DNA of 64,000 nt, taken from positions 37,324-101,323 of the forward strand of contig CANQCR010000003.1 in NCBI GenBank assembly GCA_947589735.1. The letters run 5' to 3'. The notes under the pieces are model-generated. The model did no database searches and was not told where the DNA came from. It saw only the letters and a program-made list of their open reading frames with translations. Every line of letters starts with the position of its first letter. The first letter of the stretch is position 1. The translations under genes were made by a program, and so were the position numbers. Origin of the DNA: an uncultured Bacilli bacterium (GTDB taxonomy: Bacteria; Bacillota_I; Bacilli_A; RF39; UBA660). Positions 1 through 26,132 of this stretch are shown in pieces.

Positions 1-805
1 CTTCTACACCTGTTGGAATTACCATAGTAAATGGAACTTTAATGCCTTTACTATTTAAAACTGATAATCCATACATTTTTCCACCAATATATTTTACTAC
101 GAATTTTTTAATATATAGTTCACTTAGAATACTACATGTATCTAAATCTAAAATTTTTCTTTCAGAAAGTGAATCAAATAGTCTTTTTCTAAGTGCAAAT
201 TGCTCTAATGAAAATGGATCCATTGAATTATCATCACAATAAACTTGTTGTAACTGTTCTAAGTATTGACCATAATTTTCATCAAAGAAATGATGCTGCA
301 TATCTTGCCATTTTTTTAATACGATATACTTTTTTAGCAAATCATCTGAAATGGTTAAGTTTTCACTATCTAACTTAATAGCTTCTTTTGTATCAACAGA
401 TAAATATGCTCTATCAATTTGGGCAATAATATTTAAATAATTATCAGGATATTTTCTTTGAATTTCTTCTACAATTCCATCACTTAATGTTGAATGTTCA
501 TCCATACTTTCTAAGAAATAGAAATATGCAAGAGATCTTAGGGCAAAGAAAATTTTATCATTTTCTGTTTCTGATTTTTGTGATTTTTCATAATAATCAA
601 TTGTATCTTGTCTAATATCATTGAATATACTATTTAATTCTTCAGAAGTAATTCTTCCACTAAGAATATTAATATAGTTTAAAATTTTCATTCCAAACAT
701 TTCATCATCTATAGCTTCAAACATCATTCTACTTCTAAAGGCTTTATTTGTAATTGTTTTTTCCAACACTTCTTTATATTTTTTAAATTCTTCTAACTTA
801 ATCAT
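1..805 (-). CDS. Hypothetical protein, partial. The N-terminal 268 aa lie in the window and the ORF runs off the window start. Last gene of the rSAM operon.
   Basis: Hand translation of the minus strand from the ATG at 805-803 shows no in-frame stop down to position 2 (MIKLEEFKKYKEVLEKT...). It overlaps the stop of the upstream rSAM gene by 8 nt. It is absent from the ORF track only because it is truncated by the window edge. Confidence 0.55.
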   Translation of the reverse strand, partial: MIKLEEFKKYKEVLEKTITNKAFRSRMMFEAIDDEMFGMKILNYINILSGRITSEELNSIFNDIRQDTIDYYEKSQKSETENDKIFFALRSLAYFYFLESMDEHSTLSDGIVEEIQRKYPDNYLNIIAQIDRAYLSVDTKEAIKLDSENLTISDDLLKKYIVLKKWQDMQHHFFDENYGQYLEQLQQVYCDDNSMDPFSLEQFALRKRLFDSLSERKILDLDTCSILSELYIKKFVVKYIGGKMYGLSVLNSKGIKVPFTMVIPTGVE

Positions 806-1982
806 TTTTTTCACCTTTTTTCCCTTGTTTTATTGCTAAACACACTCTATCAGTGTTCTGTTCAGATAATTTTTTTAAAAATTTAAATCTATTAACATTA
901 TCCCATATCTCTTTTAAAGTATTTTTATTTAAGTCTCCTAAATAGCTAGTTTTTATAAATGGGCAACAATATACTTTACCATTTGGATCTATCGTTACTC
1001 TAGCAACACCAGCCGTACACTTCCAATTATCATTGCCAATATAGTTTTTCTTTCCTTTACTAAAGGTATATACTTTCCTTATACCATCACTATCTGGCAC
1101 TTCCGAATAATAAATATATCCAAACTCAGGATGTTTTTTATACAAATCATTTATTTTTTCTTTCAAAGTGAGTTGTTCATTCATAGATATTTTTAAATCT
1201 TTACTAGCATTTCCTTGGACAATTAAATTTGATAATTGTACATCTTTAACACCAATTGTCTTTAATAAAGTAACCATATCTATTATATCACAATAATTTA
1301 TCTTATTGATAACTGTGTTAGTTACAACAGTATATCCTTTACTAATTGCATATTTGATATTCTCAATAGTTTTATCAAAAGTGTTTTTTCCTCTTATTTT
1401 TTCATGTGTTTCTTTTAAACCATCCACACTAACATAGAATAATAGTAATTCTTTATGCGAAATAGTTAAATCAATTTTATCTAATACTTTTTTTAAAAGG
1501 ATAGCATTGGTAAATACAGCTACTTTAATACCATTATCTATAAACTTTTTAATAATATCTTCGATACCATTATATGTTAGGCATTCTCCACCAGATATAG
1601 TTACTTCCATTACATTTGAATCAATTATCATATTAGCAATTTTCATTGCTGTTTCATATGGCAATTCAAAACCATCTAGTTTACCTAAATAGCAATGTTT
1701 ACATTTTAAATTACATTTATTAGTAATTTTCCATTGAATTTTAATAGGTGTTTCAAGTTTTAAGTTATCTTCATAATAATCTTTTGCCATTAATTTTTTT
1801 TCAATTTCATTATATAAAATTTTTAATTCTCTTTTATTATATCCCGTTTTTTCTTCAATTACTTTTAAATCATTTTGATGATCAAACATATCAAGCAACT
1901 TAAAAGTTAAATCATTTACTACGTAATACTTATCATTCCAAAAGACTAAATATCTATCATTTCCTATTTTTCTTTTCAGCAT
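798..1982 (-). CDS. Radical SAM/SPASM-domain protein with an N-terminal RRE (PqqD-like) peptide-binding domain. Likely a peptide-modifying maturase.
   Basis: CX3CX2C motif (CNLKCKHC); a C-terminal Cys-rich SPASM/twitch region (WKC..YCCPF..RVC); and about 85 aa of wHTH-like sequence before the rSAM core. Confidence 0.8.
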   Translation of the reverse strand: MLKRKIGNDRYLVFWNDKYYVVNDLTFKLLDMFDHQNDLKVIEEKTGYNKRELKILYNEIEKKLMAKDYYEDNLKLETPIKIQWKITNKCNLKCKHCYLGKLDGFELPYETAMKIANMIIDSNVMEVTISGGECLTYNGIEDIIKKFIDNGIKVAVFTNAILLKKVLDKIDLTISHKELLLFYVSVDGLKETHEKIRGKNTFDKTIENIKYAISKGYTVVTNTVINKINYCDIIDMVTLLKTIGVKDVQLSNLIVQGNASKDLKISMNEQLTLKEKINDLYKKHPEFGYIYYSEVPDSDGIRKVYTFSKGKKNYIGNDNWKCTAGVARVTIDPNGKVYCCPFIKTSYLGDLNKNTLKEIWDNVNRFKFLKKLSEQNTDRVCLAIKQGKKGEKND

Positions 1983-3207
1983 TCAAACTCACATCCTTTA
2001 ATACTCCATCCCTATATAACGCCACTAAGAAATTTTTATATTTTTCAAATTGTTCTAATCTTTCGCCATTGTTAATTTTTTCTAAAATCTTAACTGCTTC
2101 TAAATTATACTTTCTAGACGGATATGATAAACTAACATAATCTTTTTTTTCTTTTCTTAATACTGAAATGTTAACTTTCATATTCTTTTTCTTTATTTTA
2201 TTCCATACTTTTTCGATTTCCGTTTTAACAATATAGTCATTTATTTCATTTAGTTTTTCTCCTAATTCAATTTTACAACCACATCGACATCTAGCTAAAT
2301 TCTTACATACTTTACAATATTCAGGGATCCATGCCATTTTCCTATAATCTTTAAGGGAAGTTTGATTCCAAATTTTTTTTATACTATTCTCTTTAATATT
2401 GCCAATAATTCTTTTTGAACTAGGACATATTTTTACATTACCATTATAATCAATACTACCAAATAAATAACCTGCACCACATCCATGTGTTAAATATGTA
2501 TACTTATCTTCTACAGTACATGGTGCAATACAATCATTTATAGAAAAGTTATAACCCTCACTCTTTAATATATTTAAATTTTCCACAAATGAATTAATAT
2601 TTATATAACACTTATTCTTTTTGCCTTCGCCTATATTATTGTATTTAGCAAATGAAACAGGTATATTTTTTTTATTTCCAAATTCTAAAATAGACCGCAT
2701 TTCTTTAATATCCTGATTATCACTTGTAACGGTATAATTTATTTTAACATTTGTAATTTTTCTTGCTAATTCAATATTTAATAGCACTTTGTCATAGCAA
2801 TTAGAATCAGTTAGTTTATTGTGCATTTCTTTGGTACCATGAAGAGAAACACAAACACACATAATTTTATTTAAAACAGGTTGAATTTTATCAAGAAATA
2901 TACCATTTGTTAAAATTGTCTGCCTAATTCCTAATTGGGAAGCATATTCTACAATTTCCATAAAGTTTGGATGCATAAGTGGTTCTCCACCAGTATAATA
3001 CACATCATATATTCCATTATTCTTTAGTTCATCTAAAATACTTCTCGCCATATCCATACTCATATATTCATTATTTTTATTTGATACGGAGCAAAACTTA
3101 CACCGCAAATTACAACTATTATTCAATTCTAAATAAAAGTACAAAGGCATATCAACGGTATCTAATGAAATATTTTGATTATAGCCAACACTCTCATACT
3201 TAATCAT
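1957..3207 (-). CDS. Radical SAM/SPASM-domain protein
   Basis: CNLRCKFC rSAM motif; a full SPASM motif (CKVCKNLARCRCGC); and a 26-nt overlap with the downstream rSAM gene. Confidence 0.8.
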   Translation of the reverse strand: MIKYESVGYNQNISLDTVDMPLYFYLELNNSCNLRCKFCSVSNKNNEYMSMDMARSILDELKNNGIYDVYYTGGEPLMHPNFMEIVEYASQLGIRQTILTNGIFLDKIQPVLNKIMCVCVSLHGTKEMHNKLTDSNCYDKVLLNIELARKITNVKINYTVTSDNQDIKEMRSILEFGNKKNIPVSFAKYNNIGEGKKNKCYININSFVENLNILKSEGYNFSINDCIAPCTVEDKYTYLTHGCGAGYLFGSIDYNGNVKICPSSKRIIGNIKENSIKKIWNQTSLKDYRKMAWIPEYCKVCKNLARCRCGCKIELGEKLNEINDYIVKTEIEKVWNKIKKKNMKVNISVLRKEKKDYVSLSYPSRKYNLEAVKILEKINNGERLEQFEKYKNFLVALYRDGVLKDVSLNAEKKNRK

Positions 3208-3341
3208 TTTATCTTTTCCTTAATTTTATTATCAACTTGGACAATTCTACATTGCGTCATTTCTGGTTTTAACTCTTTTAAATATATTTTTGATTGCAAA
3301 TCTTTTTTATCAGTTTTTTTTAGTAACGATTTAATACCCAT
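3204..3341 (-). CDS. Unannotated 45-aa ORF (MGIKSLLKKTDKKDLQSKIYLKELKPEMTQCRIVQVDNKIKEKIK). Candidate precursor peptide or small partner of the rSAM enzymes.
   Basis: An AGGAG motif sits 9 nt upstream of the ATG. The start overlaps the end of the B12-rSAM gene by 11 nt. The stop TGA overlaps the ATG of the next rSAM gene (ATGA). Confidence 0.5.
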   Translation of the reverse strand: MGIKSLLKKTDKKDLQSKIYLKELKPEMTQCRIVQVDNKIKEKIK

Positions 3342-4971
3342 TTTTCGCATCTCCTTTATAATTTAAGCTATAATATTTTCTATCTAAATACATATATTCT
3401 GAACGATATAATATTTTCAAGCGAGTATTTGCAAATTGCTTTATTTTTTTAATATTATTAAATTTATTAATAATAGACATATATTTATAGTAATTATCAT
3501 TTTTAGTTCTATAAATCAAATTCAAGTCTTGTTCTTCATTTAAGCAACTTAAATCAACCAATTTTGAGTTTCGCATATAATTAAATATGCTTAAGCCAAA
3601 AGTATCTAAATACTTAAATTTTCTAATAAATCTTAATGTTTTTCTAATATTTAAAATATTTTCCGTTGGATATCCAATCATAAATGTTGCTGATACGGAG
3701 ATTCCTGAATTATAAAAAATTTTCATGGTTTTTTTAGCAATATTCAAATCGATTCCTTTATTCATATCTCGCAATATTTTTTTATTATAAGACTCTACCC
3801 CAAACGATATTTCTCTACACCCGCTATTATATAAAATATTCGCGAATTTTCTATCTATATACTTGCTATCAATTCTAGTCTCGACCATCCATTTTATGTT
3901 AATGTCATTATCTATTAAATATGTAGCTAATTGCATTAAAATATCTGCTGGGATACATTCATCAACAAAATATACCGCTTCAATATGTTCTCTATTATAT
4001 AATTTTTTTAAATATGCAAATATTTTATTGATATCATATGTATGATAGCCGTTATAGTAATAGTATCTAGAGCAAAACATACATTTTGAATGATAACACC
4101 CATAGTTTAAAGTAAGTGGAACTAACTTTAAGTTTGATAAATAATTTTCTAAATTCAAATCACTAAAATCAGGCACATATTTATCTTTATAAAAGCAATC
4201 TTGCTGTTTATTAATCTTATATATAATTTTATTCTCATTTCTATAAATAACATTGTCTATATTTGATACTTTCTTATTTTGAAAGATTTTAATCGTTTCT
4301 ACAACATTATTATAGTTTCCGAATAAAACTATCCCATCTATATAAGAACACTTTTCCATTAGTTCTTTTAAATTTTTATTTATGTGTGTAATATAGTCTC
4401 CACCTAAGATAATTTTAATACTACTATTTTTAGATTTTAAATACCTTGAAAATCTAATAGCGTAGCTTAATTGAAAAGGATATTGAACACTTAAATAAAC
4501 AATATCGTTGTCATTTAAATCATGAGTATTTTTTAGAACCTTATCAAATATGCTATTTTCTTCACTAAAAGCTAATTCTATAATGTCATCAACTGTAAGA
4601 ATCTTTTTAGAAAAATCTATTCCTCTTCTTTCCCATTTTATCCCATAATGTCGGCCCATTATTTCTAAATATTTATGTATTTGTTCATTAGCTTCGATAA
4701 TCTTTAGGGTATCAATTTCCCTATCTTGCATTTGCTTTACAGCTTTTTCAATATTATCTACGATATTTTTTTCTTTTTCATTTAATGAATTATAATATTG
4801 TAAACACATCTCTTTAATATAATTATTTTTAAAACAGGTTTTCAAAAATCTTGATGTTAAATCATATTGTTTAGATTTTATTTTACATTCTTTCAAATAG
4901 CCTTTCAATAAAGGAACACTTATTTGTGGCATATTAAAGGCTGTCCCAGGTAATGTATATAAATAAAGCAT
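3331..4971 (-). CDS. B12-binding-domain radical SAM protein (class B rSAM, probable methyltransferase)
   Basis: An N-terminal cobalamin-binding-like domain and a Cys motif CYHSKCMFC inside an rSAM core. Confidence 0.7.
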   Translation of the reverse strand: MLYLYTLPGTAFNMPQISVPLLKGYLKECKIKSKQYDLTSRFLKTCFKNNYIKEMCLQYYNSLNEKEKNIVDNIEKAVKQMQDREIDTLKIIEANEQIHKYLEIMGRHYGIKWERRGIDFSKKILTVDDIIELAFSEENSIFDKVLKNTHDLNDNDIVYLSVQYPFQLSYAIRFSRYLKSKNSSIKIILGGDYITHINKNLKELMEKCSYIDGIVLFGNYNNVVETIKIFQNKKVSNIDNVIYRNENKIIYKINKQQDCFYKDKYVPDFSDLNLENYLSNLKLVPLTLNYGCYHSKCMFCSRYYYYNGYHTYDINKIFAYLKKLYNREHIEAVYFVDECIPADILMQLATYLIDNDINIKWMVETRIDSKYIDRKFANILYNSGCREISFGVESYNKKILRDMNKGIDLNIAKKTMKIFYNSGISVSATFMIGYPTENILNIRKTLRFIRKFKYLDTFGLSIFNYMRNSKLVDLSCLNEEQDLNLIYRTKNDNYYKYMSIINKFNNIKKIKQFANTRLKILYRSEYMYLDRKYYSLNYKGDAKNGY

Positions 4972-5954
4972 TATAGAACTATTTCCCCGATACGTTTAAT
5001 AACTTCTTGAGAAAAAATTTCATTATTTACCCAAATTTTAATGAATGGGACAACTTCATCAAATTTTTGGATACCGGCTAAATCGCTTAAACTATCATAT
5101 ATTTTATTCATTAATTTATTATCATCAAAGATTATAGAAATAAAGTTGGCACCAGATTTAATAATTTTTATACCTTTTATGTCTTTAAAAGCATTATATA
5201 TTAAGTCTCTATTAGCTTTAATATATTCTCTAGTATCAACAAATGCTTTTAGTATTTTTTTATCATTTAATAAAGATACAAAGAAATTTTCAGAATAAGA
5301 AGTAACTGAATGTGGTGGGATAATGGTATTTCTTAGGCCTTCTATTTTTTTAGTTGTTACCATATAGCCTGTCCTATAACCGGAAGCTAAAAACTTTTTT
5401 GAAAATGATCTAAATATTATAACCCTATCATTTTCTAAGCAAATATCTATCATTCCTCTTTCATCATCTGAATAATCAATATATGCTTCATCAATAATCA
5501 AAGTTCCTTTATATATATTCAATATTTCATTTATTTGCTTTTTTGTAAATAACTCACCGCTAAACCACCTTGGTGAAGATATACATAATAAATCCTTATT
5601 ACTTGACTTAACTCTTTTTAAATTATTAATAAAATCTTCCGTATGAATTCCTTGTACAAATATTATTTTTTTATCATTTAATAATGCTGTCCTTTTATAT
5701 AGAGCAAATTCTATATCTGGTAATATAATATTTTTCCAATCCTTTAATCCAACTATTGCATTAATAAATTGACTAATACCAGCACCAACATATATATAGT
5801 CTTTTTTTACATTTATGTAATTTGAAATTGCCTTAACAAGAGGATCTTCTAGAGGATATGCTAAATTATAGTTAAAATCCCCGTTGGCGTTTTCTTTAAA
5901 GTGTTTTATTTCCCATTTCCTTAATAATTTATTATTTTGCCATACTGATGACAT
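4971..5954 (-). CDS. Class I/II PLP-dependent aminotransferase/decarboxylase family (HisC/CobD-like)
   Basis: IDEAY and RSFSKKFLASGYRTGY motifs with the PLP lysine. The 327-aa length is typical of CobD-like members. Confidence 0.75.
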   Translation of the reverse strand: MSSVWQNNKLLRKWEIKHFKENANGDFNYNLAYPLEDPLVKAISNYINVKKDYIYVGAGISQFINAIVGLKDWKNIILPDIEFALYKRTALLNDKKIIFVQGIHTEDFINNLKRVKSSNKDLLCISSPRWFSGELFTKKQINEILNIYKGTLIIDEAYIDYSDDERGMIDICLENDRVIIFRSFSKKFLASGYRTGYMVTTKKIEGLRNTIIPPHSVTSYSENFFVSLLNDKKILKAFVDTREYIKANRDLIYNAFKDIKGIKIIKSGANFISIIFDDNKLMNKIYDSLSDLAGIQKFDEVVPFIKIWVNNEIFSQEVIKRIGEIVL

Positions 5955-6021
5955 ATACTATCTTTCCTTTCTTTAAACAATAGTACACATTGCTTATTTA
6001 AACTCTAGTATGTTCTATTCA

Positions 6022-6060
6022 TTTATAAACAAAAAAGAGGGCCATAAAACAAGGCCCTCC
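6022..6060 (-). terminator. Rho-independent terminator of the gene ending at 6139
   Basis: GAGGGCC-N9-GGCCCTC hairpin followed on the minus strand by TTTTTTGTTTAT. Confidence 0.7.
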
Positions 6061-6138
6061 TCCTCCACAAGTACTACAAATTAATTTATCACTTATTTTA
6101 TTACTTTTTTTAATGAAAATCAATTGTTTTTATATATT

Positions 6139-6528
6139 TTATTTTTTTATATAAACAGATATAACGTATAAATCCATACCATCAGCATTTTTATCATAGA
6201 TAACATTATCAATAATAGGAAGCATATGATAATAATTGTTTTTATCCCAGCAAAATACAATATATGAATCATTATTCAAATTCAAATCTTTAATCATAAC
6301 ATCTTTATCAAAATCAACATTAAAAATATTATTATCTTCCATATATTTTTCAAATACCGGTATATCATTAAATGAAGAACAATTTAATTCTTTTGCAACT
6401 TCACATAAGTCATTATAAACATCTTCATATTCTTTATTTAAAATCTTACACAAACTTCTTATTACGCAATTACTTTTACCGTTTTTATCTGATATACAAA
6501 ATTCTTTAAATATCATCTTAATCTCCAA
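6139..6528 (-). CDS. Hypothetical protein
   Basis: A 129-aa ORF within the run of minus-strand genes. Confidence 0.5.
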   Translation of the reverse strand: MEIKMIFKEFCISDKNGKSNCVIRSLCKILNKEYEDVYNDLCEVAKELNCSSFNDIPVFEKYMEDNNIFNVDFDKDVMIKDLNLNNDSYIVFCWDKNNYYHMLPIIDNVIYDKNADGMDLYVISVYIKK

Positions 6529-7006
6529 TCTTTTTTATTTTTGTATACATTCTTGAATGATATCCATTTTTATCATAAAACTTAATCGCATTTTCATTAT
6601 AAGCAAATACATCTACTAAAATATATTCACAACCTAGTGATTTGAAATATTCTTCCATCTTATTCATAAGCATATTACCTATACCCTTACTTCTTACATT
6701 TTTAGAAACTATTAATTCCGTTATTTCTCCTCTTTTCGGACATTTATAATCGAGATAATCATATTCATCATATGGAAAAATACATCCCATAATTAATCCT
6801 ACTGCTCTATCATTTTCAATTGCTATATAACATTTACCATTATTATTTTTAACTTTCTCTAAATCTAAAATTGCCATTTTATCTCTATATTCTGGATGTA
6901 GTTGATCTAAATTATCTTTATCAATAGATAAAATATACTCTTCAAGTTCAACTAACAAGTCTTTAACATCTTCCAAATATTTATCTTCGTATTCTATTAT
7001 TTTCAT
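6518..7006 (-). CDS. GNAT family N-acetyltransferase
   Basis: Acetyl-CoA-binding motif RSKGIGNMLM. Confidence 0.75.
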   Translation of the reverse strand: MKIIEYEDKYLEDVKDLLVELEEYILSIDKDNLDQLHPEYRDKMAILDLEKVKNNNGKCYIAIENDRAVGLIMGCIFPYDEYDYLDYKCPKRGEITELIVSKNVRSKGIGNMLMNKMEEYFKSLGCEYILVDVFAYNENAIKFYDKNGYHSRMYTKIKKIGD

Positions 7007-7604
7007 TATTAAAATAATACTCCTTAGTTAAACCATATTTAGAAAAAGTTAATATTCCATCATAAAAAGTATAAGGTGATTCTTTTACTACTTCACCAGT
7101 TTTTTCAAATCCTAGTTTTTCAAATATTCTACAAGATCCTATATTATCTTTTACAGCGCCAGAAGAAATACCATTTATTTCTACATCTTTAAACATATAA
7201 TCAATCATTGCTTTAGTAGCTTCGGTTGCATATCCTTTCCCTTGGTAAATAGGATATATATACCAACCCACATCACGAATGGTAATATCCTCTCCATTTT
7301 CCTGAGCAGATATCTGACCAATTACTTCTTCATAACCACTATTCGTATATTCCGGCTTCAAAAATACGCTCCATACAAATACATCATTATTATCTGCTTT
7401 TTCTACTTTAGATTTATAAAACTTTTCTTGATTTTCCCAAGTCCAGTGACTTGGATTATTTGCATATTTTTTCGCACTTGTTAGATACCATTTATTTACT
7501 TCTGGTATCATTAATATCTCCCACAATCTTTTTTGTTCTTCCATTTTAGAACTTCTTAATATTAATCTTTCCGTTTCTATTGTTTTACTTCCCATTAAAT
7601 TCAT
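6981..7604 (-). CDS. GNAT family N-acetyltransferase (RimJ/RimL-like)
   Basis: QGKGYATEA motif and RimL-like architecture. Confidence 0.75.
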   Translation of the reverse strand: MNLMGSKTIETERLILRSSKMEEQKRLWEILMIPEVNKWYLTSAKKYANNPSHWTWENQEKFYKSKVEKADNNDVFVWSVFLKPEYTNSGYEEVIGQISAQENGEDITIRDVGWYIYPIYQGKGYATEATKAMIDYMFKDVEINGISSGAVKDNIGSCRIFEKLGFEKTGEVVKESPYTFYDGILTFSKYGLTKEYYFNNENNRIRR

Positions 7605-7622
7605 AATATCAAACCCTTTTAT

Positions 7623-8378
7623 CTATACTCTATCATAACCCCACCAATCAGGAATTAATTCTTCTAGTCTTACTATTTCTTTCGTATTAATGTTTTTACA
7701 TATTTCAATATCTTTACTCTTTTTAGATAGTTGCATCAGATATTCTCTACATGCTCCACAAGGTAAACAAACATTTCCTTTTGAATCAATACAAACTAGT
7801 TTTATAATCTCATTTTCACCATTTGTAATCATATTAGCAATAGCATTCCGCTCACCACACATACCAAGTGTTGATGCCGTATCAATGCATACACCTGTGT
7901 AAATATTATGATTTTTAGTAAGTATTGCTGATCCAACTTGCCCTGCACTAATCATCCCTGATACTTCTCTTGGATTTCTAATATTCTTTGCCTTTTCATA
8001 TAATTCATCCCAAACAGTGTTTTCACTATATAAATATTCTATATGAATTGCATATACACCATTTTTCTCAATAGCTTCTTGATATCCATCTGGCGCACTT
8101 ACATTTCTAATTGCTTCTTCTTTATCTTTGGTAGAGGAAGTTGTATATCGTATGCCTTCTAAAGTGAATAATTCTTCTAAAGAATTATAATGATTTACTT
8201 CTTTAACTTTAACATAAAATACACCTAAATTATTACTAGTAAATTCTATAATATCATTTTCTTTTAATTTACTATAATCATACTCGCTATTTTCTTTTTT
8301 TACTCTTATTTCTACTCTCTTTGTATTATTCTTTATAGCTAAAGCTTCACAATCACTAATATTTAATTTCATTATCAT
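7623..8378 (-). CDS. ASCH-domain / cytidine-deoxycytidylate deaminase-like fusion protein
   Basis: An N-terminal ASCH-like region; C-terminal zinc motifs (MCGERNAI ... PCGACRE) typical of CDA and blasticidin-S deaminase folds. Confidence 0.65.
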   Translation of the reverse strand: MIMKLNISDCEALAIKNNTKRVEIRVKKENSEYDYSKLKENDIIEFTSNNLGVFYVKVKEVNHYNSLEELFTLEGIRYTTSSTKDKEEAIRNVSAPDGYQEAIEKNGVYAIHIEYLYSENTVWDELYEKAKNIRNPREVSGMISAGQVGSAILTKNHNIYTGVCIDTASTLGMCGERNAIANMITNGENEIIKLVCIDSKGNVCLPCGACREYLMQLSKKSKDIEICKNINTKEIVRLEELIPDWWGYDRV

Positions 8379-8446
8379 TTTAATATCCTCCTAACAAAAA
8401 AATTCTGCATAATGCAAAATTAATTTTATAAGTTAAAAGAATATTC

Positions 8447-8512
8447 CTAAAAGTTTAATAAATTAGGAGTAGTGATTAATTTTGCATTATTAACAACTTG
8501 TAAATTTTTCAT
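8447..8512 (-). CDS. 21-aa leader uORF (MKNLQVVNNAKLITTPNLLNF)
   Basis: Strong SD GAAAGGAGGG 9 nt upstream of the ATG. The ORF overlaps one arm of a 16-bp inverted repeat upstream of the deaminase gene. Confidence 0.4.
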   Translation of the reverse strand: MKNLQVVNNAKLITTPNLLNF

Positions 8513-8678
8513 CTTAATCACCCTCCTTTCTTTGAATAATTTACACTAATAATATATCATAATTTTATAATTTTTTAAATTACCTTTGCTTTTTCTTTAA
8601 CGATTAAAATAAAACTTGTTATATAAACGTTACTTTTCTAATATCATTTTGATATTTTAATTTTAAAAGTATCATTTA

Positions 8679-9947
8679 TTAGATAGTAAGGTGAATAGCG
8701 GTAACAGACACGCCCTGGCCAAAAGCCGTCGTAACTGTTTCTAGATCCCCAATCTTATCAACATCAAAAAGGATTCCGTTTTCTTCCCCATTTAGTTCAA
8801 TACCTGTTTTAACCCCAAAACCAAAATCTTTAATATATTTAAATAATTTTTCTTTACCTAATTTATAACCGATACTGACAAATCCCGTATTACATGAGTT
8901 TTCGACAACTTCTAAATAGGTTTGATGGCCATGGCCACCATGTTTCCAACAATGAATTGTCGCTCCACTTACTTTCACACTACCCGTATCATAATAGTAG
9001 TCTTTATCTAAATCAATTAAGTTTTCTTCTAAAGCCGAAGCTAACGATATAATCTTAAATGTTGATCCCGGTTCATAAGTCATCCAAATGGGAAGATTAC
9101 GATTAATCTCTTCGGTCGCATAATCTTGATAATGCAATGGGGAAAAAGTCGGACGAGATGCGATAGCTAATACTTCGCCGGTGTTAGGATCCATTATTAT
9201 GCCCCAAGCCCCATCGGGATTATACATATTAATAGCGTTATCTAATTCTCTTTCTAAAGCTTCTTGCAACTTATAGTTAATGGTTAGGGTAATATTCATT
9301 CCCGCCTGGGGTTGTTCATATTTTTGACTTAACTTTAATTTTTCACCCTTCGCATCACTATAATATTTAATCGCACCATAGCTTCCCGTTAAATAATCAT
9401 CATAGATGAGTTCTAAACCGCTTAAACCTTGATTATCTATTCCAACAAAACCAAGTGTATTAGCTAAAAGCGTATCATAAGGATAATCCCTCTTCGCTTC
9501 TTTAACAAGATAGACGCCATCTAATTTTAAAGCATTTATCTTATCCGCTACTAAATTACTAAGTCGTCTTCCCTCCGGGTGAACCCGTTCGATAGATGTC
9601 TTTTTACTTGTGTGCGCTAACATATCATCATATGGAACTTCTAAAATGTTAGCTAAAGCTGAAGCCGTCTTTTCCTTATCTTTAATTTGATTAGGAATCA
9701 ATACTAAGGATGTCGTCGTTACATTACCTGCTAAAGTAACCCCTTCCCGGTCATAGATATTTCCTCGGTTAGCTTCTAAAGGTAGATTACGACTCCATAA
9801 GTCATTCGCATATTTATTTAATTTATCATAACTAAATACTTGGATATAAAAAACTTTGCCAATGATTATTATAAACATCATTATAATTATGACTAAAACA
9901 AAGCGCATTCTTTCGTTCATTTTTTTAATAAACATATCATCACCCAT
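8679..9947 (-). pseudogene. C-terminally truncated class B penicillin-binding protein (FtsI/PBP2B-like)
   Basis: N-terminal TM segment, dimerisation domain, and the STFK and SCN motifs are present. The ORF stops before the KTG motif. Only about 300 bp of non-coding sequence follows. Confidence 0.6.
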
Positions 9948-9959
9948 ATTATTTTATGA

Positions 9960-10003
9960 ATTAAAGATGTTTATTAATAAAGAAAAGAGAAATATTTCTC
10001 TTT
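9960..10003 (-). terminator. Putative terminator after the HAD/GT-C gene
   Basis: AAGAGAAAT/ATTTCTCTT palindrome followed by a T-rich run. Confidence 0.35.
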
Positions 10004-13000
10004 TTAGGCGGTTATAAGTAAGAATAATTCAGCTGCCGATAAGACATTGGTTGGTTCAATTTTATTTTTAATAAAATAAGTACCCAAGAATGTTAATTTA
10101 GCATAATCAGCCCTAGTATCAGCTTTCTTCCAAGATAATGGATATAACTGATTACTCAATGTCATACTAGCTTTATCACCTAATAAGTGACGCTGTTCGT
10201 AAGCTAAAGATGGGTCATTATCGTTAAATACGATGACACGTAATTTACTTACATTTTCATCAGTATACCAAAAAGCATTAGTATGATTATCTGTCTTTTT
10301 ATAGTCGTAGGCTAGATCAAGATTAAATTGTGATAGACCGAATTTTAACCATAATGTCTGATAATCTGGGTAATCAATAGCTTTAGAATTAGTAAGATAC
10401 TTACCTAGTTTATCTTCAACCTTAATAGTATCAGCTTCTTTGATAATCTTTTTAACCATATCATTATCTTTATCCGTAACTAATGATAATAGATATAATA
10501 ATTCACCTAGATTAGTTACATCTTTATCTTTCGTATCATATATATCATCAATAGATAAAATCCAATCTTTGATTATATCAATGTTATCTGTCTTCTTAAG
10601 AACCATTGCGGCCACGGCGGCATCTTTATACTGTGGTTTATCATAAGTAAACACATTAGGATAAATAATACCATCTTTAATATTAATTAATATCTCTTGA
10701 TATAATACATTTAATAATTCACTATACTTATAATCATCAAAACGTGGTAACGAAATATCCTCTTCGGTATTAGGAACTATATCATCATCATTATCACTAA
10801 TGATGTGAACAGCTTTTTCATCTTCCACAATTTTATAGAATTTATTATCCTTTGTCTTTATTAAAACAGTATATAGATTAGGAATAATAAGTTGTTCTAA
10901 AACATCAAAGCGCCTATAAACTTTTTCTGTGGCAATATCTCTTAAAACACCATTTTGGTAAATGTATTTATCACGGTTACCCATTCCATAAAGTAAAAAT
11001 TTCTCATTATTAAATCGCTTATTAATAACAATATTTTTTTCGCCGACAAAAGCCTTATACTGATCTTTATACTTTTGATAAGCTTCAACTTCATCTTCAT
11101 AGTAGGCACTTAAACTCTTAGATGGTGAGGGGATACTTAATTTACCATATATATTATTACTTGCGCGGTAATTATTAAAAGTCTCAAAACGAATAAATAG
11201 TATTGATGTAATAAAGATGCATAGGCACCCTACTATCAAAAGAATGGTTTTATGGTGACGAATATACTTTTTAATTAAAAGTCCAGCTGAAAAGATAAGA
11301 ACAATTATAGCAATAATAAAAGGTATAAAAATGATAAGTTCTTTAATAATCGCTAAATGGCTAGAAATAAACTCCATCTTAAAGTGTTTATTTAAAGCGA
11401 CAAGCAATTGTTTAAAGCCAATAACATTACTAAAAAGTTCAAACAAGAAGAAAAATATTAAAAAGATGCTCGTAATCTTATATTGACGACGATTATTAAG
11501 GGCAAAGAGTAAAATCACTAAGTATATGATATTTTCTGAATAAAGAAAAGCATTATCATTTCCATATAAAATGTGTAAAAAGCTCATACCCAGTAAACTT
11601 ACTAAAAGCCCGAGATTTAAAATCTTATTATGCTTAAAATTAATAATGATAAGACATATTAAAAGTCCATAAAAAAGAGTAATGATAATAGTTTTAATAT
11701 AATTTGGTTTAACAAATCCTAAAATAGTCTTAGAGTCAGGGTTATTTTCATCATAATACGTCTCTTTAATCTTACTAGCAGCAATACCGTTCATATAGAT
11801 ATCATTATAAACATTTTGTGCTTTCGCAAGTGTTATATCGTATGAAACATATTCCCCTTCAGCGGCTTGACTATTATCCATAACACCTCTAACAATATTT
11901 TTAGGCGTTATCCAGATTAGTTCTTGGACAATCGTCAATACAATAATAGCGAGAATAGTCAGTAAATGAATCGTAATAAACTTCTTAAAGTTAACTTTTT
12001 TACCAAGCCATAAAACTAATGTACCAACGCCAAAGACAGTATAATTAGTTAGTAATATACCCGCTGTTAAAATGCCAAGTGCGATATAGCGGTATAACTT
12101 AAAAGTCCGGTAATGGTTAAAATCTAAAAAGATGTTATACCAAAGAAGAATAAATGATAAAGCTGATAAAGAATATATTTCAAAAGTTGTATTAAAAACT
12201 AAAGAACTAAAAGAAAAACCATATATCAATGTCAGAACAAAATTAACAATTTTATTTTGACTAATAAGACATAAAGATTGGTATAAGTATTTAATACAAA
12301 GCCCACCGATCAAAGACATAAAAAGGCCAAGCGCAAAAACACCATTATGCGTAAATCCTTGAAGTAATAAAATAAGGGGTTGGAAGAGTATTATAAGTGG
12401 ATGAACACCAATTCGGGAATTATGGTCATAAATAATGGTTGAAAAGTCATTATAAACTCGACCTGTATCTGATTGAAAAAGAAAGTCCCAATTACTGGTT
12501 AGGTCATGATTATAATTAATTAACATATCTAAAACAAAATAGATAATGAAAAAAATTATTCCTAGACAGGTTCCCGTTTTCTTAACCCGGTCATGATAAA
12601 GTTTATTAACGTCATACGCTAATATTTCTCCATTAGAAACCATATAGGCATTATTAGATGCTGAAGCGATAAAGCGGTCGGTATAAGAATCAGAATAAGA
12701 ATTATTAATACTAAACTTTTTATAATTTTTCTTAAGATATTCTAATTTATTCTCACCTCGACAATTATCATCTAACCATTCTCCAGTTTTAATTGAAGCC
12801 GTGGATGCAATAACTGTTTTAACACCTAATTTATGTCCAATTGGTTCGATTAAAAAGTTTGGTGAAGCACTTAAAATTACTGCCTGTTGGTCATTTGCAA
12901 GCAATTTTTTTAATTCCGGATAAATCTTTTTTTCATGGGTCTGCCAAAACTCATCAACTAGAGCTTCGGGATCATCAAAATAACGTAAAAAAGAAAAGTA

Positions 13001-13216
13001 AACTGTTTTAAACTTTTCTTTTTTTATAAAATGGAAAAGATATAAAACCATATATAAGAATATCTTAGGAAACAGTAAGATATTCTTTTTTCTTTTTTGT
13101 AATGCAAAAAGGAAAAAATCAACGGCACTATCACCATTGTAAATCGTGCCATCAAAATCATATACATTAATTTTATTATTAGATTGCATATAAAACGACC
13201 CCCATATATAAGCCAT
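10004..13216 (-). CDS. Fusion of a HAD-family phosphatase (N-terminal) with a large polytopic GT-C-like membrane glycosyltransferase carrying a C-terminal extracytoplasmic domain
   Basis: DFDGT HAD motif; more than 12 predicted TM helices; a roughly 370-aa soluble C-terminus; a 38-nt overlap with the upstream UbiA-family gene. Confidence 0.6.
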   Translation of the reverse strand: MAYIWGSFYMQSNNKINVYDFDGTIYNGDSAVDFFLFALQKRKKNILLFPKIFLYMVLYLFHFIKKEKFKTVYFSFLRYFDDPEALVDEFWQTHEKKIYPELKKLLANDQQAVILSASPNFLIEPIGHKLGVKTVIASTASIKTGEWLDDNCRGENKLEYLKKNYKKFSINNSYSDSYTDRFIASASNNAYMVSNGEILAYDVNKLYHDRVKKTGTCLGIIFFIIYFVLDMLINYNHDLTSNWDFLFQSDTGRVYNDFSTIIYDHNSRIGVHPLIILFQPLILLLQGFTHNGVFALGLFMSLIGGLCIKYLYQSLCLISQNKIVNFVLTLIYGFSFSSLVFNTTFEIYSLSALSFILLWYNIFLDFNHYRTFKLYRYIALGILTAGILLTNYTVFGVGTLVLWLGKKVNFKKFITIHLLTILAIIVLTIVQELIWITPKNIVRGVMDNSQAAEGEYVSYDITLAKAQNVYNDIYMNGIAASKIKETYYDENNPDSKTILGFVKPNYIKTIIITLFYGLLICLIIINFKHNKILNLGLLVSLLGMSFLHILYGNDNAFLYSENIIYLVILLFALNNRRQYKITSIFLIFFFLFELFSNVIGFKQLLVALNKHFKMEFISSHLAIIKELIIFIPFIIAIIVLIFSAGLLIKKYIRHHKTILLIVGCLCIFITSILFIRFETFNNYRASNNIYGKLSIPSPSKSLSAYYEDEVEAYQKYKDQYKAFVGEKNIVINKRFNNEKFLLYGMGNRDKYIYQNGVLRDIATEKVYRRFDVLEQLIIPNLYTVLIKTKDNKFYKIVEDEKAVHIISDNDDDIVPNTEEDISLPRFDDYKYSELLNVLYQEILINIKDGIIYPNVFTYDKPQYKDAAVAAMVLKKTDNIDIIKDWILSIDDIYDTKDKDVTNLGELLYLLSLVTDKDNDMVKKIIKEADTIKVEDKLGKYLTNSKAIDYPDYQTLWLKFGLSQFNLDLAYDYKKTDNHTNAFWYTDENVSKLRVIVFNDNDPSLAYEQRHLLGDKASMTLSNQLYPLSWKKADTRADYAKLTFLGTYFIKNKIEPTNVLSAAELFLLITA

Positions 13217-21332: not shown

Positions 21333-22712
21333 CTAATAGTCACAATTGTTTGGTGTCCGGTAATATGGAATAACATCACGGATATTTTCAACACCTGTTA
21401 AATAAATTAACAAACGTTCAAAGCCCATACCAAAGCCAGAGTGAACACACCCACCATAACGGCGTAAGTTCAAGTACCAATCAAGCTCATCAGTATTCAT
21501 ACCTAACTCATGCATTCTGCTAACAAGTTTATCATAGTCTTCCTCACGTTGTGAGCCACCCATCAATTCCCCAGCACCTGGTACCTCAAGATCAACGGCC
21601 GCAACTGTCTTGCCATCAGCATTTTGTTTCATATAGAAAGCTTTAATATCTTTAGGCCAGTTTTTGATGAAAACAGGGCCATTAAAGTATTCGGTAATAT
21701 ATTTTTCGTGTTCCTTGGCAATATCCTCACCATATTCAGGGGGAAACTCCCACTTAACATCGGCTTCTTTTAAAATCTTAATAACTTCTTCGTGATCGAT
21801 ACGGGTAAACTTACTACTAATTAACTTGGTTAATTTTTCTTTTAATCCTTTTTCGACAAAGGCATCAAAGAAGTCAATTTCTAAAGGACAATTGTCTAAG
21901 ACATACTTAACAACATATTTAAGCATATCTTCCATAATATCCATATCTTGATCTAAATCACAGAAAGCAATTTCTGGTTCAATCATCCAAAACTCATTAG
22001 CGTGCGTTTTCGTATTAGAGTTTTCCGCTCTAAAGGTTGGACCAAAAGTATACGTTTTCTTATAAGCTAGAGCCCAAGTTTCAGCTTCTAATTGACCTGA
22101 TACCGTAAGAGATGTTTGTTTACCAAAAAAGTCTTTACTATAGTCAACCTCACCACTTTTCGCAATCCGGTCTAAATCAAGAGTCGTTACTTGAAACATC
22201 TCACCAGCTCCCTCACAATCACTAGCTGTAATTAAAGGAGCATGAAAATAAACATATCCACGTTCTTGAAAGTATTTATGAATCGCATAAGCGGCGACGC
22301 TACGAACTCTAAAAGTTGCATTAAACAAGTTCGTCCGAGGACGAAGATAAGCATTATCTCTTAAGAACTCTCTTGTATGTCTTTTAGGTTGAATTGGATA
22401 GTCTTCATCACAATCACCTTCTAGAGTAAGTTCTTTGCATTGCATTTCTAACTCTTGTCCTTCTTTAGGTGATGGAATTAATATGCCAGTTACACTAATC
22501 GCACTACCAATATGTAACTTGGTAATCTCATCGAAATTAGCTAATTTGTTATCATAGACAATTTGTAAATGGGTAAATGTTGTCCCATCACTAAAATCGA
22601 TAAAACCAAATTCTTTTTGCTTACGATGATTACGAATCCAGCCTTGAACAGTTACTTCTTTATTTAAATAAGCTTTCGTATCAGCATATATTTCTTTTAA
22701 ATCTAAAATCAT
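21333..22712 (-). CDS. asnS: Asparagine--tRNA ligase
   Basis: Close match to E. coli AsnRS (EGAGEMFQV, FGPTFRAENSNT, GGSQREE, HSGFGMGFERL). Confidence 0.9.
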   Translation of the reverse strand: MILDLKEIYADTKAYLNKEVTVQGWIRNHRKQKEFGFIDFSDGTTFTHLQIVYDNKLANFDEITKLHIGSAISVTGILIPSPKEGQELEMQCKELTLEGDCDEDYPIQPKRHTREFLRDNAYLRPRTNLFNATFRVRSVAAYAIHKYFQERGYVYFHAPLITASDCEGAGEMFQVTTLDLDRIAKSGEVDYSKDFFGKQTSLTVSGQLEAETWALAYKKTYTFGPTFRAENSNTKTHANEFWMIEPEIAFCDLDQDMDIMEDMLKYVVKYVLDNCPLEIDFFDAFVEKGLKEKLTKLISSKFTRIDHEEVIKILKEADVKWEFPPEYGEDIAKEHEKYITEYFNGPVFIKNWPKDIKAFYMKQNADGKTVAAVDLEVPGAGELMGGSQREEDYDKLVSRMHELGMNTDELDWYLNLRRYGGCVHSGFGMGFERLLIYLTGVENIRDVIPYYRTPNNCDY

Positions 22713-22714
22713 AG

Positions 22715-24172
22715 TTACCTCCTATCAATTTCTTCTTTGATAATTTGGGCCGTTAATGATGGATTAGCTTGACCTCTTGTCTCTTTCATTACTTGACCGA
22801 CGAAGAAATCAAAAGTATTACGACCTTTACGATGTTCAATAATTAAATCAGGATGAGCATCTAAAACTCTAACGACAATATCCCGAATAGTTTTATCATC
22901 AGATATTTGACTAACACCTAATTCTTTGACAATGACTTTTGGTTCTTTCTTTTCTTCTAAGACTTTATTTAAAACTTCTTTACTCTGTTTAGAAGATATT
23001 TTACCATCTTTCGTCATCTGCATTAAATCAACTAACATTTTGGGTGTTAAATAAAGATCTTTAATTTCTAATTCATTTTTATTTAAATAACCTAATATGA
23101 CACTTGTAAGCCAGTTAGCCGCTCCTTTAGGATCAGCTCCTAAACTGATAACCTCTTCATAATAATCCGAAATAGCTTTATCTTTAACTAGTATTTTAGC
23201 GTCATAAGCTGATAGGTTATATGTTTTCATATATTTTTCTTTACGTTCAGGCGCTAAAGCAGGAATACTCTTACGAATATTATCGAGCCAACTTGAGCTT
23301 ATTTTAAACTTTGGAATATTAGGTTCAACAAAATATTTATAGTCGATAGCATCTACTTTACTTCGCATAAACTTCGTTGTAAAAGTATCTTCATCCCATC
23401 TTCTGGTTTGTTGTTCCATCTTATCATATTCACCCTTTTGTTTTAACTCTACTTGTCTTTCAATTTCATAGTTAATAGCGTCTCTAACGCCGGCAAAAGA
23501 GTTAACATTTTTAATTTCTACTTTAGTTCCCCAATTTTTAGGATCTGTTTCATCTAGGTTTTCATCCATAATCGAAACGTTAACGTCACATCTAATTTGT
23601 CCCTTGCGGTTATCCGCATCACTTATTTCAGCATACTGATAAATAGAGCGCATCGTCTCAAGAAAAGCAACGGCTTCATCAGCGCTATGTAAATCCGGTT
23701 CCGTTACTAATTCTAGAAGAGGAACACCAGCCCGGTTATAATCAATGGTTGAAAAAGTAGGATAGTGATCAGATGAAGCAGCATCTTCTTCTAGATGGAT
23801 ATTGTTAATGCGAACAGTTCTCTCTTCATCTTTATAATCAAAAGTAAGGGAGCCATAGATACCGACAGGAGCAGGTTTAGTCTCTTGTGTAATCTGATAA
23901 CCCTTAGGTAAATCAGGATAATAATAATTCTTTCTTTCAAAGTACATATACTCTGGTTGTTTACAATTTAAAATCATACTTGCTTTTAAAGCTAGCTCAA
24001 CCGCTTTTTTATTGACAACTGGTAAGGTTCCTGGAAAAGCCATATCAAGAGGTCTAATATTGGCATTAGGAGTATCATTATAATCGTTTAGAGCACTACT
24101 AAAAACTTTCGTCTTTGTCTTACTTATTTCACAGTGCATCTCAAGTCCGATTAAAGCTTTATATCCGTCCAT
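22715..24172 (-). CDS. gatB: Asp/Glu-tRNA amidotransferase subunit B
   Basis: GatB N- and C-terminal signatures; gatC-gatA-gatB gene order. Confidence 0.9.
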   Translation of the reverse strand: MDGYKALIGLEMHCEISKTKTKVFSSALNDYNDTPNANIRPLDMAFPGTLPVVNKKAVELALKASMILNCKQPEYMYFERKNYYYPDLPKGYQITQETKPAPVGIYGSLTFDYKDEERTVRINNIHLEEDAASSDHYPTFSTIDYNRAGVPLLELVTEPDLHSADEAVAFLETMRSIYQYAEISDADNRKGQIRCDVNVSIMDENLDETDPKNWGTKVEIKNVNSFAGVRDAINYEIERQVELKQKGEYDKMEQQTRRWDEDTFTTKFMRSKVDAIDYKYFVEPNIPKFKISSSWLDNIRKSIPALAPERKEKYMKTYNLSAYDAKILVKDKAISDYYEEVISLGADPKGAANWLTSVILGYLNKNELEIKDLYLTPKMLVDLMQMTKDGKISSKQSKEVLNKVLEEKKEPKVIVKELGVSQISDDKTIRDIVVRVLDAHPDLIIEHRKGRNTFDFFVGQVMKETRGQANPSLTAQIIKEEIDRR

Positions 24173-25977: not shown

Positions 25978-26053
25978 TGGCGCCTGATGTAGGACTCGGA
26001 CCTACGACCTGCCGGTTAACAGCCGGATGCTCTACCGACTGAGCTAATCAGGC
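25978..26053 (-). tRNA. tRNA-Asn (GTT)
   Basis: Hand-folded cloverleaf; anticodon loop CTGTTAA; encoded CCA. Confidence 0.85.
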
Positions 26054-26056
26054 GCA

Positions 26057-26132
26057 TGGCGCTCAATGTAGGACTCGGACCTACGACCTGCCGGTTAACA
26101 GCCGGATGCTCTACCAACTGAGCTAATTGAGC
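26057..26132 (-). tRNA. tRNA-Asn (GTT), second tandem copy with a different acceptor stem
   Basis: Same body as the first copy; acceptor GCTCAAT/ATTGAGC; encoded CCA. Confidence 0.85.

Follow-up and report, generated by a model that had tools for sequence, protein, structure and literature searches.

A radical SAM operon from an uncultured Bacilli bacterium probably forms most of an unnamed RiPP pathway

Introduction

Peptide maturases such as SkfB, CteB, PapB and SuiB join a RiPP recognition element (RRE; RiPP, a peptide made by the ribosome and modified after translation) to a radical S-adenosylmethionine (SAM) domain and a SPASM or twitch domain. Bottromycin clusters contain stand-alone YcaO proteins, class-B radical SAM methyltransferases and an O-methyltransferase, with neither SPASM radical SAM enzymes nor a pyridoxal 5'-phosphate (PLP) enzyme or a phosphoenolpyruvate (PEP)-utilising enzyme, and their precursor carries a follower, not a leader. 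The YcaO of Escherichia coli is an accessory factor of RimO, the radical SAM enzyme responsible for the methylthiolation of Asp88 in ribosomal protein S12. Here, we analyse a 64,000-nucleotide stretch of DNA from an uncultured Bacilli bacterium (assembly GCA_947589735.1, contig CANQCR010000003.1, positions 37,324–101,323), referred to below as the window. Its first six genes (A, B, S, D, E and F) are read, with a probability of about 0.72, as the greater part of a single operon belonging to an unnamed RiPP pathway, the precursor peptide and a YcaO protein being encoded just outside.

As a whole, the system belongs with RiPP clusters of radical SAM/YcaO type and is widespread in gut Firmicutes, and yet it fails every specific family test made. 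Using the NCBIfam models of June 2026 and the Pfam models of 2025, none of the cluster proteins reaches a curated NCBIfam equivalog or subfamily cut-off. The enzymes match domain or superfamily models only (Radical_SAM, SPASM, Aminotran_1_2, PPDK_N, PEP-utilizers and YcaO), while S and the precursor are covered by no curated Pfam or NCBIfam family. An initial annotation, made from the sequence without database searches, had proposed an uncharacterised RiPP-like system corresponding to no named cluster; this stands, with SkfB, SuiB, CteB and PqqE as the nearest relatives of its two SPASM-type enzymes.

Results

Gene layout and operon boundary

The six genes are tightly coupled on the minus strand and occupy window positions 1–5954, as determined from the open reading frame (ORF) listing and translation of the gene at the edge. 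From A to F the overlaps are 1, 11, 4, 26 and 8 nucleotides, exactly as first described; the G+C content of the region is ~25%. Gene A (4971–5954) encodes a 327-residue HisC/CobD-like PLP enzyme of the class I/II aminotransferase fold, and gene B (3331–4971) a 546-residue class-B-like radical SAM enzyme. Gene S (3204–3341) encodes a small protein of 45 residues, or of 48 residues if the alternative ATG at 3350 is used. The two core enzymes follow: D (1957–3207), of 416 residues, has a radical SAM domain, a full seven-cysteine SPASM domain and a C-terminal domain that is winged-helix/RRE-like in its model, and E (798–1982), of 394 residues, has a modelled N-terminal RRE, a radical SAM domain and a reduced SPASM or twitch-like domain. 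Gene F (1–805) is cut by the window edge after its N-terminal 268 codons. Pfam and NCBIfam bear out the enzyme set named at the outset, with Radical_SAM found in three proteins, SPASM in two of these and Aminotran_1_2 in the PLP enzyme.

The preceding gene (6139–6528) ends in an intrinsic-terminator-like hairpin on the minus strand at 6031–6059 (GAGGGCC-N9-GGCCCTC-T6), with a folding energy of -20.2 kcal/mol and a z-score of -4.3, in agreement with the terminator placed there by the initial annotation. A terminator scanner had missed this hairpin because its loop measures 9 nucleotides. The hairpin marks the 5' boundary of the operon, which should therefore begin within the 76 nucleotides before the gene A ATG at 5954, and the segment at 5955–6030 on the minus strand is taken to hold the untranslated leader and the presumed promoter region. 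The ATG itself is preceded by AAAGGAAAG. The promoter initially placed at 5955–6021 is putative: a scan for sigma-70-like promoters gave 68 matches against 74.8 expected from shuffles, and thus none above background, the scan being uninformative in such AT-rich DNA; Rfam detected no riboswitch or other element in window 1–10000.

A precursor peptide and a YcaO beyond the window edge

Metagenome contigs were found that carry the exact E protein. One of these, contig L001, is 100% identical to window 1–11,982 (11,982 nucleotides) and can therefore be used to read past the window start. On L001 the complete F is a protein of 567 residues, composed of an N-terminal part of ~250 residues without a Pfam match, a PPDK_N ATP-grasp part and a PEP-utiliser swivelling-histidine domain. 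It comes nearest to PEP synthase, rifampin phosphotransferase (RPH) and PigC/RedH, but reaches the cut-off of none of these.

F is followed by a short ORF whose most plausible product is a 40-residue peptide, MIRFLKRLFRKDNNVLINLNNVNKTLSMSMAGNGNCSDCC, encoded at L001 ~12919–13038, ~940 bp beyond the window start. The peptide ends in GNGNCSDCC and is the probable precursor. It is a more canonical candidate than S, the embedded 45-residue ORF initially put forward in that role, which does turn out to be a conserved small protein. Next on L001 comes a convergently oriented gene for a YcaO protein of 681 residues, and beyond it a 68-residue ORF and a 549-residue large serine recombinase. The transport or immunity genes initially considered possible beyond the edge are not what lies there; the remainder of F, which had correctly been called truncated, the precursor, the YcaO and the recombinase are found instead.

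The YcaO protein passes the domain model TIGR00702 (108.6 versus a cut-off of 75.65) and scores 122 bits with Pfam YcaO; its nearest relatives are the YcaO proteins of E. coli (4q84) and MJ1094. It is not of the SagD type associated with thiazole/oxazole-modified microcins (TIGR03604, 55.4 versus 219), and no ThiF, Ocin-ThiF or nitroreductase Pfam domain occurs in the locus tables. Neither is it of the thioamidating type (methanogen-marker YcaO model TIGR03266, 60.9 versus 365), TfuA being present in no locus table. The shorter YcaOs of Lachnospiraceae-type clusters end in a Cys-rich motif, WPKCPECSVCPYNKEC or FPICPNCKKCRISVTCP (C-terminus of the L014 and L100 proteins, at L014 ~8380–8480; also L095 ~6500–6640), which the window-lineage YcaO lacks and which may be a zinc or Fe-S ribbon.

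Conservation of the cluster in ten lineages

Ten lineages with enzyme identities of 30–80% were compared. Genes D and E are present and adjacent in all ten, as is a peptide with a conserved C-terminal nonapeptide, always within the cluster. S and YcaO are each found in nine, the lineage without YcaO within 10 kb being L099 (Anaerocolumna sp. MB42-C2). F is found in seven, and A together with a B homologue in four; in L099, the only class-B radical SAM enzyme is 23% identical to B. The PLP enzyme and class-B radical SAM enzyme, initially listed as part of the set, are therefore present here as accessory members. Gene order is rearranged between lineages, and the same arrangement, reordered, recurs in loci with enzymes just 30–45% identical, which argues that it is not due to chance. 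A scan of a genome collection with a six-sequence alignment returned 80 loci, four of them truly related.

The probable precursor is in each case a 30–50-residue ORF with a variable leader and a C-terminus of the form [GA]G-x-Y-C-[SG]-D-x-C or a variant of it. The leaders differ widely, while the nonapeptide occurs as GGNYCSD[AIV]C, GGNYCGDVC, GGDYCGDVC or AAGYCSDQC, and as the variant GNGNCSDCC, which the window lineage shares with the two lineages nearest to it. Within the seven lineages with a GGxYC-type core, the Y, C, D and C are invariant and their synonymous codons differ. A short ORF with divergent leaders and a conserved C-terminal core has the anatomy of a RiPP precursor.

Around this core, the clusters contain variable extras: SAM methyltransferases, an S51 or S8 peptidase, ABC transporters, an HTH_3 regulator and a HATPase_c_5 kinase. 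The flanks of other members hold an HTH_3 regulator with an ABC-2 transporter, a HATPase_c_5 kinase, or Peptidase_S8 with ABC transporters, and such regulators and exporters are typical of peptide natural products. The Lachnospiraceae-type S marker was found in ~1,900 assembly blocks, and the 80%-identical relative of the window type in ~370.

In one Lachnospiraceae contig (L101 12769–14226), a DUF772 transposase sits between E and the precursor gene. Phage-defence neighbours, namely GmrSD, an OLD-family nuclease with a UvrD helicase and a SMODS/CBASS-type gene, occur at L091 1–5163 and L095 9290–11000, which suggests that family members lie in variable defence or mobile islands.

Radical SAM enzymes D and E

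Pfam assigns both Radical_SAM and SPASM to D and to E. The invariant cysteines of D comprise C32, C36 and C39 of a CxxxCxxC motif and the seven of the SPASM domain (C230, C243, C261, C298, C301, C307 and C311). An AlphaFold2 model of D, computed from an alignment of database-search homologues, has a predicted local distance difference test (pLDDT) score of 93.3; at residues ~340–405 it shows an additional domain at the C-terminus, built from four strands and two helices. The corresponding model of E, computed from the family alignment, has a pLDDT of 87.9. Residues 2–65 form a beta1-3/alpha1-3 unit (pLDDT about 87–93), which in the model is a canonical RRE. For the RRE-type domains of D and E only the structure models were informative, sequence-profile detection having been of no use. 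In the E family C90, C94 and C97 as well as C322, C340 and C381 are invariant; the C-terminal domain is considered twitch-like because just three to four conserved cysteines are located there.

A Foldseek search of the Protein Data Bank (PDB) places SuiB, SkfB and CteB at the top for D. For E, SkfB, SuiB and CteB align over ~405–428 columns with their N-terminal RREs included, which together with the model upholds the RRE initially assigned to one of the two SPASM enzymes. For both models anSME, BtrN, MoaA and viperin rank below SuiB, SkfB and CteB. Sequence and fold alike thus put D and E nearest to SkfB, SuiB, CteB and PqqE, all of them peptide maturases, and further from anSME and BtrN: the best 25 NCBIfam matches of either protein include no anSME model, and BtrN is a partial sequence match (E~1e-4). 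Orthology to characterised non-RiPP enzymes of this kind, which would have argued against a peptide pathway, was accordingly not found.

The proximity to known maturases is nonetheless a distant one. All maturase-model scores for D and E are far below cut-off, including those for PapB (NF047865, 64.6 versus 340), SkfB (TIGR04403, 68 versus 300), StsB (NF045574, 75 versus 625) and AlbA (NF012164, 70.5 versus 850), and SuiB is a fold match only, with 17–20% identity to D and E. They are likewise not PqqE (82.9 versus 381 bits) or MftC (82–88 versus 265). The similarity to the ranthipeptide, streptide and triceptide enzyme set noted at first is thus an analogy only, because no such maturase family model is matched. 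The D family is discrete, as scores drop from 332 to 140 bits beyond its ~89 clusters (at 90% identity), and its members are named only 'radical SAM protein' in source records. The E family contains 52 representative clusters at E<1e-30, of which ~30 are full-length and share 30–44% identity, N-terminal domain included.

The small protein S

S starts at the ATG at 3341, with GGAG located 9 nucleotides upstream, and its stop codon overlaps the start of D (ATGA). The conserved core, IYLKELKPEMTQCRIVQVD, spans 19 residues and corresponds to the profile I-[YF]-[IL]-K-[EK]-[LVI]-[KR]-P-[ED]-[MI]-T-[QE]-C-R-[IV]-[IVL]-Q-[VI]-[DE], placed between variable charged tails. Profile searching retrieved ~110 clusters of relatives of 33–68 residues, nearly all of which stand alone; S itself has no Pfam or NCBIfam match. 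Within eight aligned lineages the T, C and R of the core are invariant and their synonymous codons vary. Because these invariant residues sit on varying codons, and ~110 homologous clusters exist, S can be considered a real, translated protein. The concern that the small ORF might not be conserved in homologous loci is answered by its presence in nine lineages, and its alignments indicate that it is conserved far more strongly than the neighbouring enzymes.

In every locus having S, it adjoins D on the 5' side, whatever gene precedes it, and the stop and start usually overlap. This applies to L091, L093, L097 and L099, and to the Lachnospiraceae clusters without any B (L014 and L100–102), in which YcaO and D flank S. 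In the abundant L007 lineage an in-frame fusion joins S to the end of B (a 545-residue enzyme), and in L095 S is fused to the C-terminus of YcaO. The most divergent branch, L096, has no S but keeps D, E and YcaO, and a peptide ending in GGNYCGDVC occupies the position 5' of D.

The L007 fusion, a 589-residue protein associated with a 1-nucleotide indel, raised the possibility that S is a frameshifted tail of B. We rejected this, since S is separate in L013 and ~110 stand-alone homologues exist, since S is not beside a B12-like radical SAM enzyme in L014, L091, L093, L097 or L099, and since the L095 fusion involves YcaO and not B.

Accessory enzymes A and B

Gene A matches Pfam Aminotran_1_2 at 94 bits, which places it at superfamily level. 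It is neither HisC nor CobD at equivalog level (NCBIfam hisC 126.1 versus 276.55, CobD 91.4 versus 290.55). Its top PDB matches are histidinol-phosphate aminotransferases, and the PLP lysine (SxSK), as read from the sequence, is retained in the motif SFSKKF...GYRTGY. Among the ten lineages, A is restricted to the window lineage, L007, L013 and L091.

Gene B has a clear Pfam Radical_SAM domain, while the B12-binding domain is matched at E=0.013 only (15.8 bits versus a cut-off of 32.1). The top NCBIfam matches are class-B families, namely PhpK (93 versus 600), BchE and the RiPP C-methyltransferase TIGR03975 (73.5 versus 282), all far below cut-off. The description as a cobalamin-dependent (B12) radical SAM enzyme in the initial annotation is therefore plausible, and borne out in part only by these matches. 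The top PDB match is AprD4 (1.4e-6), a diol-dehydratase that is reported not to use cobalamin. B is intact in the window, homologues being 539 residues long in L013 and 512 in L091; the 589-residue protein of the L007 lineage is a read-through fusion with S that differs from the window by the 1-nucleotide indel. The cysteine motif of B, at window 3980–4010, reads C-YHSK-C-MF-C, that is CX4CX2C and not the canonical CX3CX2C.

The carrier element in spoVD

The cluster is carried by an integrated element of 13.8 kb (L001 3292–17102) that interrupts spoVD. Window 1–8691 lies inside the element, and the left junction is at window 8691/8692. The N-terminal part of a spoVD-type penicillin-binding protein gene at window 8679–9947 covers TIGR02214 positions 2–413, and the C-terminal part at L001 17119–17757 covers positions 419–634. 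The two halves rejoin in frame over a shared CA dinucleotide (...VTAIQITAVSATINGG...), and the predicted bacterial attachment site (attB) reads …GTTACCGCTATTCAAATTACAGCCGTT…. The 549-residue large serine recombinase abuts the right junction, its gene ending inside it. By its gene halves and recombinase, the element is predicted to be of the type that intervenes in sporulation genes, and its excision would restore the reading frame.

Described elements of this type are skin in sigK, gin in gerE and SPbeta in spsM (PMC5595907, PMC4191935). The carrier has in common with these a large serine recombinase at one junction and the precise interruption of a mother-cell sporulation gene; it differs in that the target is spoVD, the cargo is a RiPP cluster and excision is predicted only. 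We found no literature report of an intervening element in spoVD.

Further cargo at window 6139–8378 consists of a 129-residue ORF without a family, two GNATs (one Acetyltransf_3/RimJ-like) and a 251-residue protein with ASCH and cytidine-deaminase folds. These were considered as cluster members and rejected, as they are not conserved beside the cluster elsewhere; they could be resistance-type genes.

Contigs L007–L011, with 80% identical enzymes, carry the cluster, here with a TehB-like methyltransferase and an S51 peptidase, in a different island with several insertion sites. The island also contains genes for a DNA methylase, for HAD and His_Phos proteins and for CI-like repressors. Its left flanks vary between contigs (SpoIIP, VanY/holin, M16 peptidases, ffh), and L010 ends with a 681-residue serine recombinase. 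As this island is unlike the spoVD element, the cluster appears to be mobile cargo on at least two element types.

Elsewhere in the window, a T-box leader (121.8 bits) is located at 25981–26383 on the minus strand. It is directly followed by two tRNA genes, an unusual arrangement, and then by ORFs in 21333–25626 for proteins of 484, 485 and 459 residues, possibly gatB, gatA and an aminoacyl-tRNA synthetase.

Discussion

Proposed pathway

What we observe is gene content, domain architecture, conservation and co-occurrence; from these, every chemical step and the role of S are inferred. The pathway would have a four-part core, comprising the precursor, E, D with two auxiliary Fe-S clusters provided by its full SPASM domain, and S, whose translation is coupled to that of D. 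E would dock the precursor leader through its N-terminal RRE, after which E and D would each abstract a hydrogen from the core peptide and cross-link its two invariant cysteines. By analogy with QhpD, PapB, SkfB and CteB, the cross-links would most likely be thioethers to Asp, Asn or Tyr carbons. YcaO would then use ATP to phosphorylate a backbone amide and so yield an azoline or a thioamide/amidine. Within the window lineage, F would activate a hydroxyl, enol or carboxyl oxygen via an RPH/PigC-like phospho-histidine, B would methylate an unactivated carbon, and A would take up an oxidised or phosphorylated intermediate and either transaminate or decarboxylate it.

S is depicted in this scheme as a small partner bound by D. 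An accessory peptide of this kind, acting as an adaptor or as a leader in trans, is its most likely role and the one we favour, because S is always located 5' of D and tolerates fusion to neighbouring enzymes. A second, PqqA-like substrate is less likely; it is suggested by the invariant cysteine of S and by D having a recognition-type domain of its own.

Several observations weigh against the reading of the locus as a RiPP operon. At sequence level, the C-terminal domain of D is not tied to RREs (hhalign probability 10%, no PDB profile match), and Pfam PqqD detects neither this domain nor the N-terminal domain of E. L099 lacks a YcaO within 10 kb, and in no locus does YcaO have an E1-like, Ocin-ThiF or TfuA partner. 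The window-lineage element contains no recognisable exporter, immunity gene or leader peptidase, and the S51 peptidase is present in L007 and L013 only. The precursor gene is not always next to E or D. Finally, a core conserved so strongly at 30–40% enzyme identity is unusual for bacteriocins, and fits a cofactor, signal or metal-binding product better.

Alternative explanations

The alternative that survives best, which we nevertheless consider unlikely, is that S is the precursor, or one of two, with D binding it via the C-terminal winged helix and modifying T-x-C-R, for example by a Cys thioether, similar to PqqA and PqqE or to other cases of a precursor encoded directly upstream of its radical SAM enzyme. 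The constant position of S directly 5' of D, its invariant cysteine and a 19-residue core under protein-level selection agree with this, as do flanks that are variable, of low complexity and leader- or follower-like. The recognition-type domain of D is moreover distinct from the RRE of E, so that two recognition domains would face two conserved peptides, and the NCBIfam matches of D include PqqE and the mycofactocin maturase, albeit sub-threshold. Conversely, a peptide that needs processing and release would not be expected to be fused in frame to a 545-residue enzyme, as S is in L007, or to YcaO, as in L095, and the overlapping stop and start codons of S and D suggest subunit-like 1:1 expression. 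L096 retains D, E, YcaO and the GGNYCGDVC peptide, located 5' of D, without any S, and a second peptide of canonical precursor anatomy is present in every locus.

The strong conservation of the nonapeptide also raises the question of what kind of product is made. Instead of a peptide antibiotic, the pathway could make from it a small molecule that serves as redox cofactor, metallophore or signal, in the manner of pyrroloquinoline quinone (PQQ) or mycofactocin, with the kinase, PLP enzyme and methyltransferases acting after proteolytic release. Conservation limited to the last nine precursor residues, at 30–40% enzyme identity, makes such a product a serious alternative to a bacteriocin, and the Tyr, Cys, Asp and Cys of the core are residues that typically serve as metal or redox ligands. 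Small molecules are the usual substrates of PLP enzymes, PEP-utiliser phosphotransferases and SAM methyltransferases, and both D and E have sub-threshold matches to PqqE and the mycofactocin maturase. Set against this are a patchy distribution on mobile elements at differing sites, where a cofactor would be expected with its dependent enzymes in a stable chromosomal context, ABC exporters with an adjacent HTH regulator in other members, as for secreted peptides, and the lack of any co-occurring partner oxidoreductase family. On balance we judge this explanation to be improbable.

A non-RiPP function, in which the radical SAM enzymes mature a protein (anaerobic sulfatase-like) or oxidise a sugar or aminocyclitol together with the aminotransferase (BtrN/BtrR-like) and the small ORFs are incidental, can draw on the known small-molecule logic of pairing a radical SAM dehydrogenase with an aminotransferase and on the occurrence of anSME and BtrN among the fold matches, but is highly improbable given that both rank well below SuiB, SkfB and CteB (BtrN partially, at E~1e-4), that E carries a modelled RRE, that the aminotransferase is absent in six of the ten lineages while both small peptide genes are retained alongside D and E, and that no sulfatase or sugar-pathway genes are adjacent in the loci examined.

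Significance

We thus retain the reading of the window genes as most of an unnamed RiPP operon. A more far-reaching version, which we put forward tentatively and as rather doubtful in its entirety, is that the cluster defines a new class of RiPP, based on the cooperation of two separately encoded conserved peptides. Of these, S would be either a core-less trans leader or adaptor, or a second substrate for D. The nonapeptide would be cross-linked by two radical SAM enzymes and then processed by an E. coli-type YcaO, here also by phospho-histidine and PLP enzymes, perhaps to a compact metal-binding or cofactor-like product of human-gut Firmicutes. Our literature search found nothing on this gene combination, on the core motif or on PEP-utiliser enzymes in RiPPs, and found neither the PEP-utiliser nor the HisC-like PLP enzyme type reported in RiPP biosynthesis.

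If the RiPP reading is correct, the clusters represent a family of natural-product peptides that has so far gone unstudied, and one of its forms is very common in human-gut assemblies. New enzymology would then include a partner-less YcaO, a PEP-utiliser phosphotransferase and HisC-like PLP enzyme in a peptide pathway, and the 19-residue S motif. A defined substrate for an E. coli-type YcaO beside radical SAM enzymes could clarify the still enigmatic function of that subfamily. The carrier would add spoVD to the sporulation genes with excisable elements, and shows a biosynthetic cluster as cargo.

Comparison with known systems

The SkfB, CteB, PapB and SuiB pathways are closest, providing the best sequence and fold matches to D and E and the same combination of RRE, radical SAM and SPASM or twitch domains. 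As for SkfB, CteB and PapB, the core is Cys-bearing and offers candidate Asp/Asn acceptors, here with two invariant cysteines next to Asp and Tyr. The present system differs in having two distinct radical SAM enzymes, one with a C-terminal recognition-type domain, and in containing YcaO, S and a PEP-utiliser, all absent from those pathways. Compared with streptides and triceptides, the core has no Trp or Lys-Trp motif, and no StrB-, SuiB- or XyeB-type model reaches its cut-off.

PQQ and mycofactocin biosynthesis share with this locus a radical SAM-SPASM enzyme, a short peptide with few key C-terminal residues and a small conserved peptide gene directly upstream. In contrast to these, neither peptide here has an E-x3-Y or GVY motif, PqqB/C/F and MftD/E/F homologues are absent, and the cluster is mobile and patchy.

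Bottromycin clusters have in common with this system a YcaO without an E1-like partner, a class-B-like radical SAM enzyme, a SAM methyltransferase (here in sister lineages) and a core ending in Asp-x-Cys; here, however, YcaO is nearer to E. coli YcaO and the precursor has a leader. E. coli YcaO is itself the best PDB and NCBIfam relative of the cluster protein, and both are found beside a radical SAM enzyme with an Asp-containing target. The score of 146.6 is nonetheless well short of the cut-off of 700, the genomic contexts are unlike, and no RimO-type methylthiotransferase is present in the cluster. F, lastly, combines the PPDK_N ATP-grasp and swivelling phospho-histidine domains of RPH and PigC/RedH, but in 567 instead of ~860–900 residues: the rifampin- or substrate-binding middle domain is missing, and the N-terminal ~250 residues are unrelated to those enzymes.

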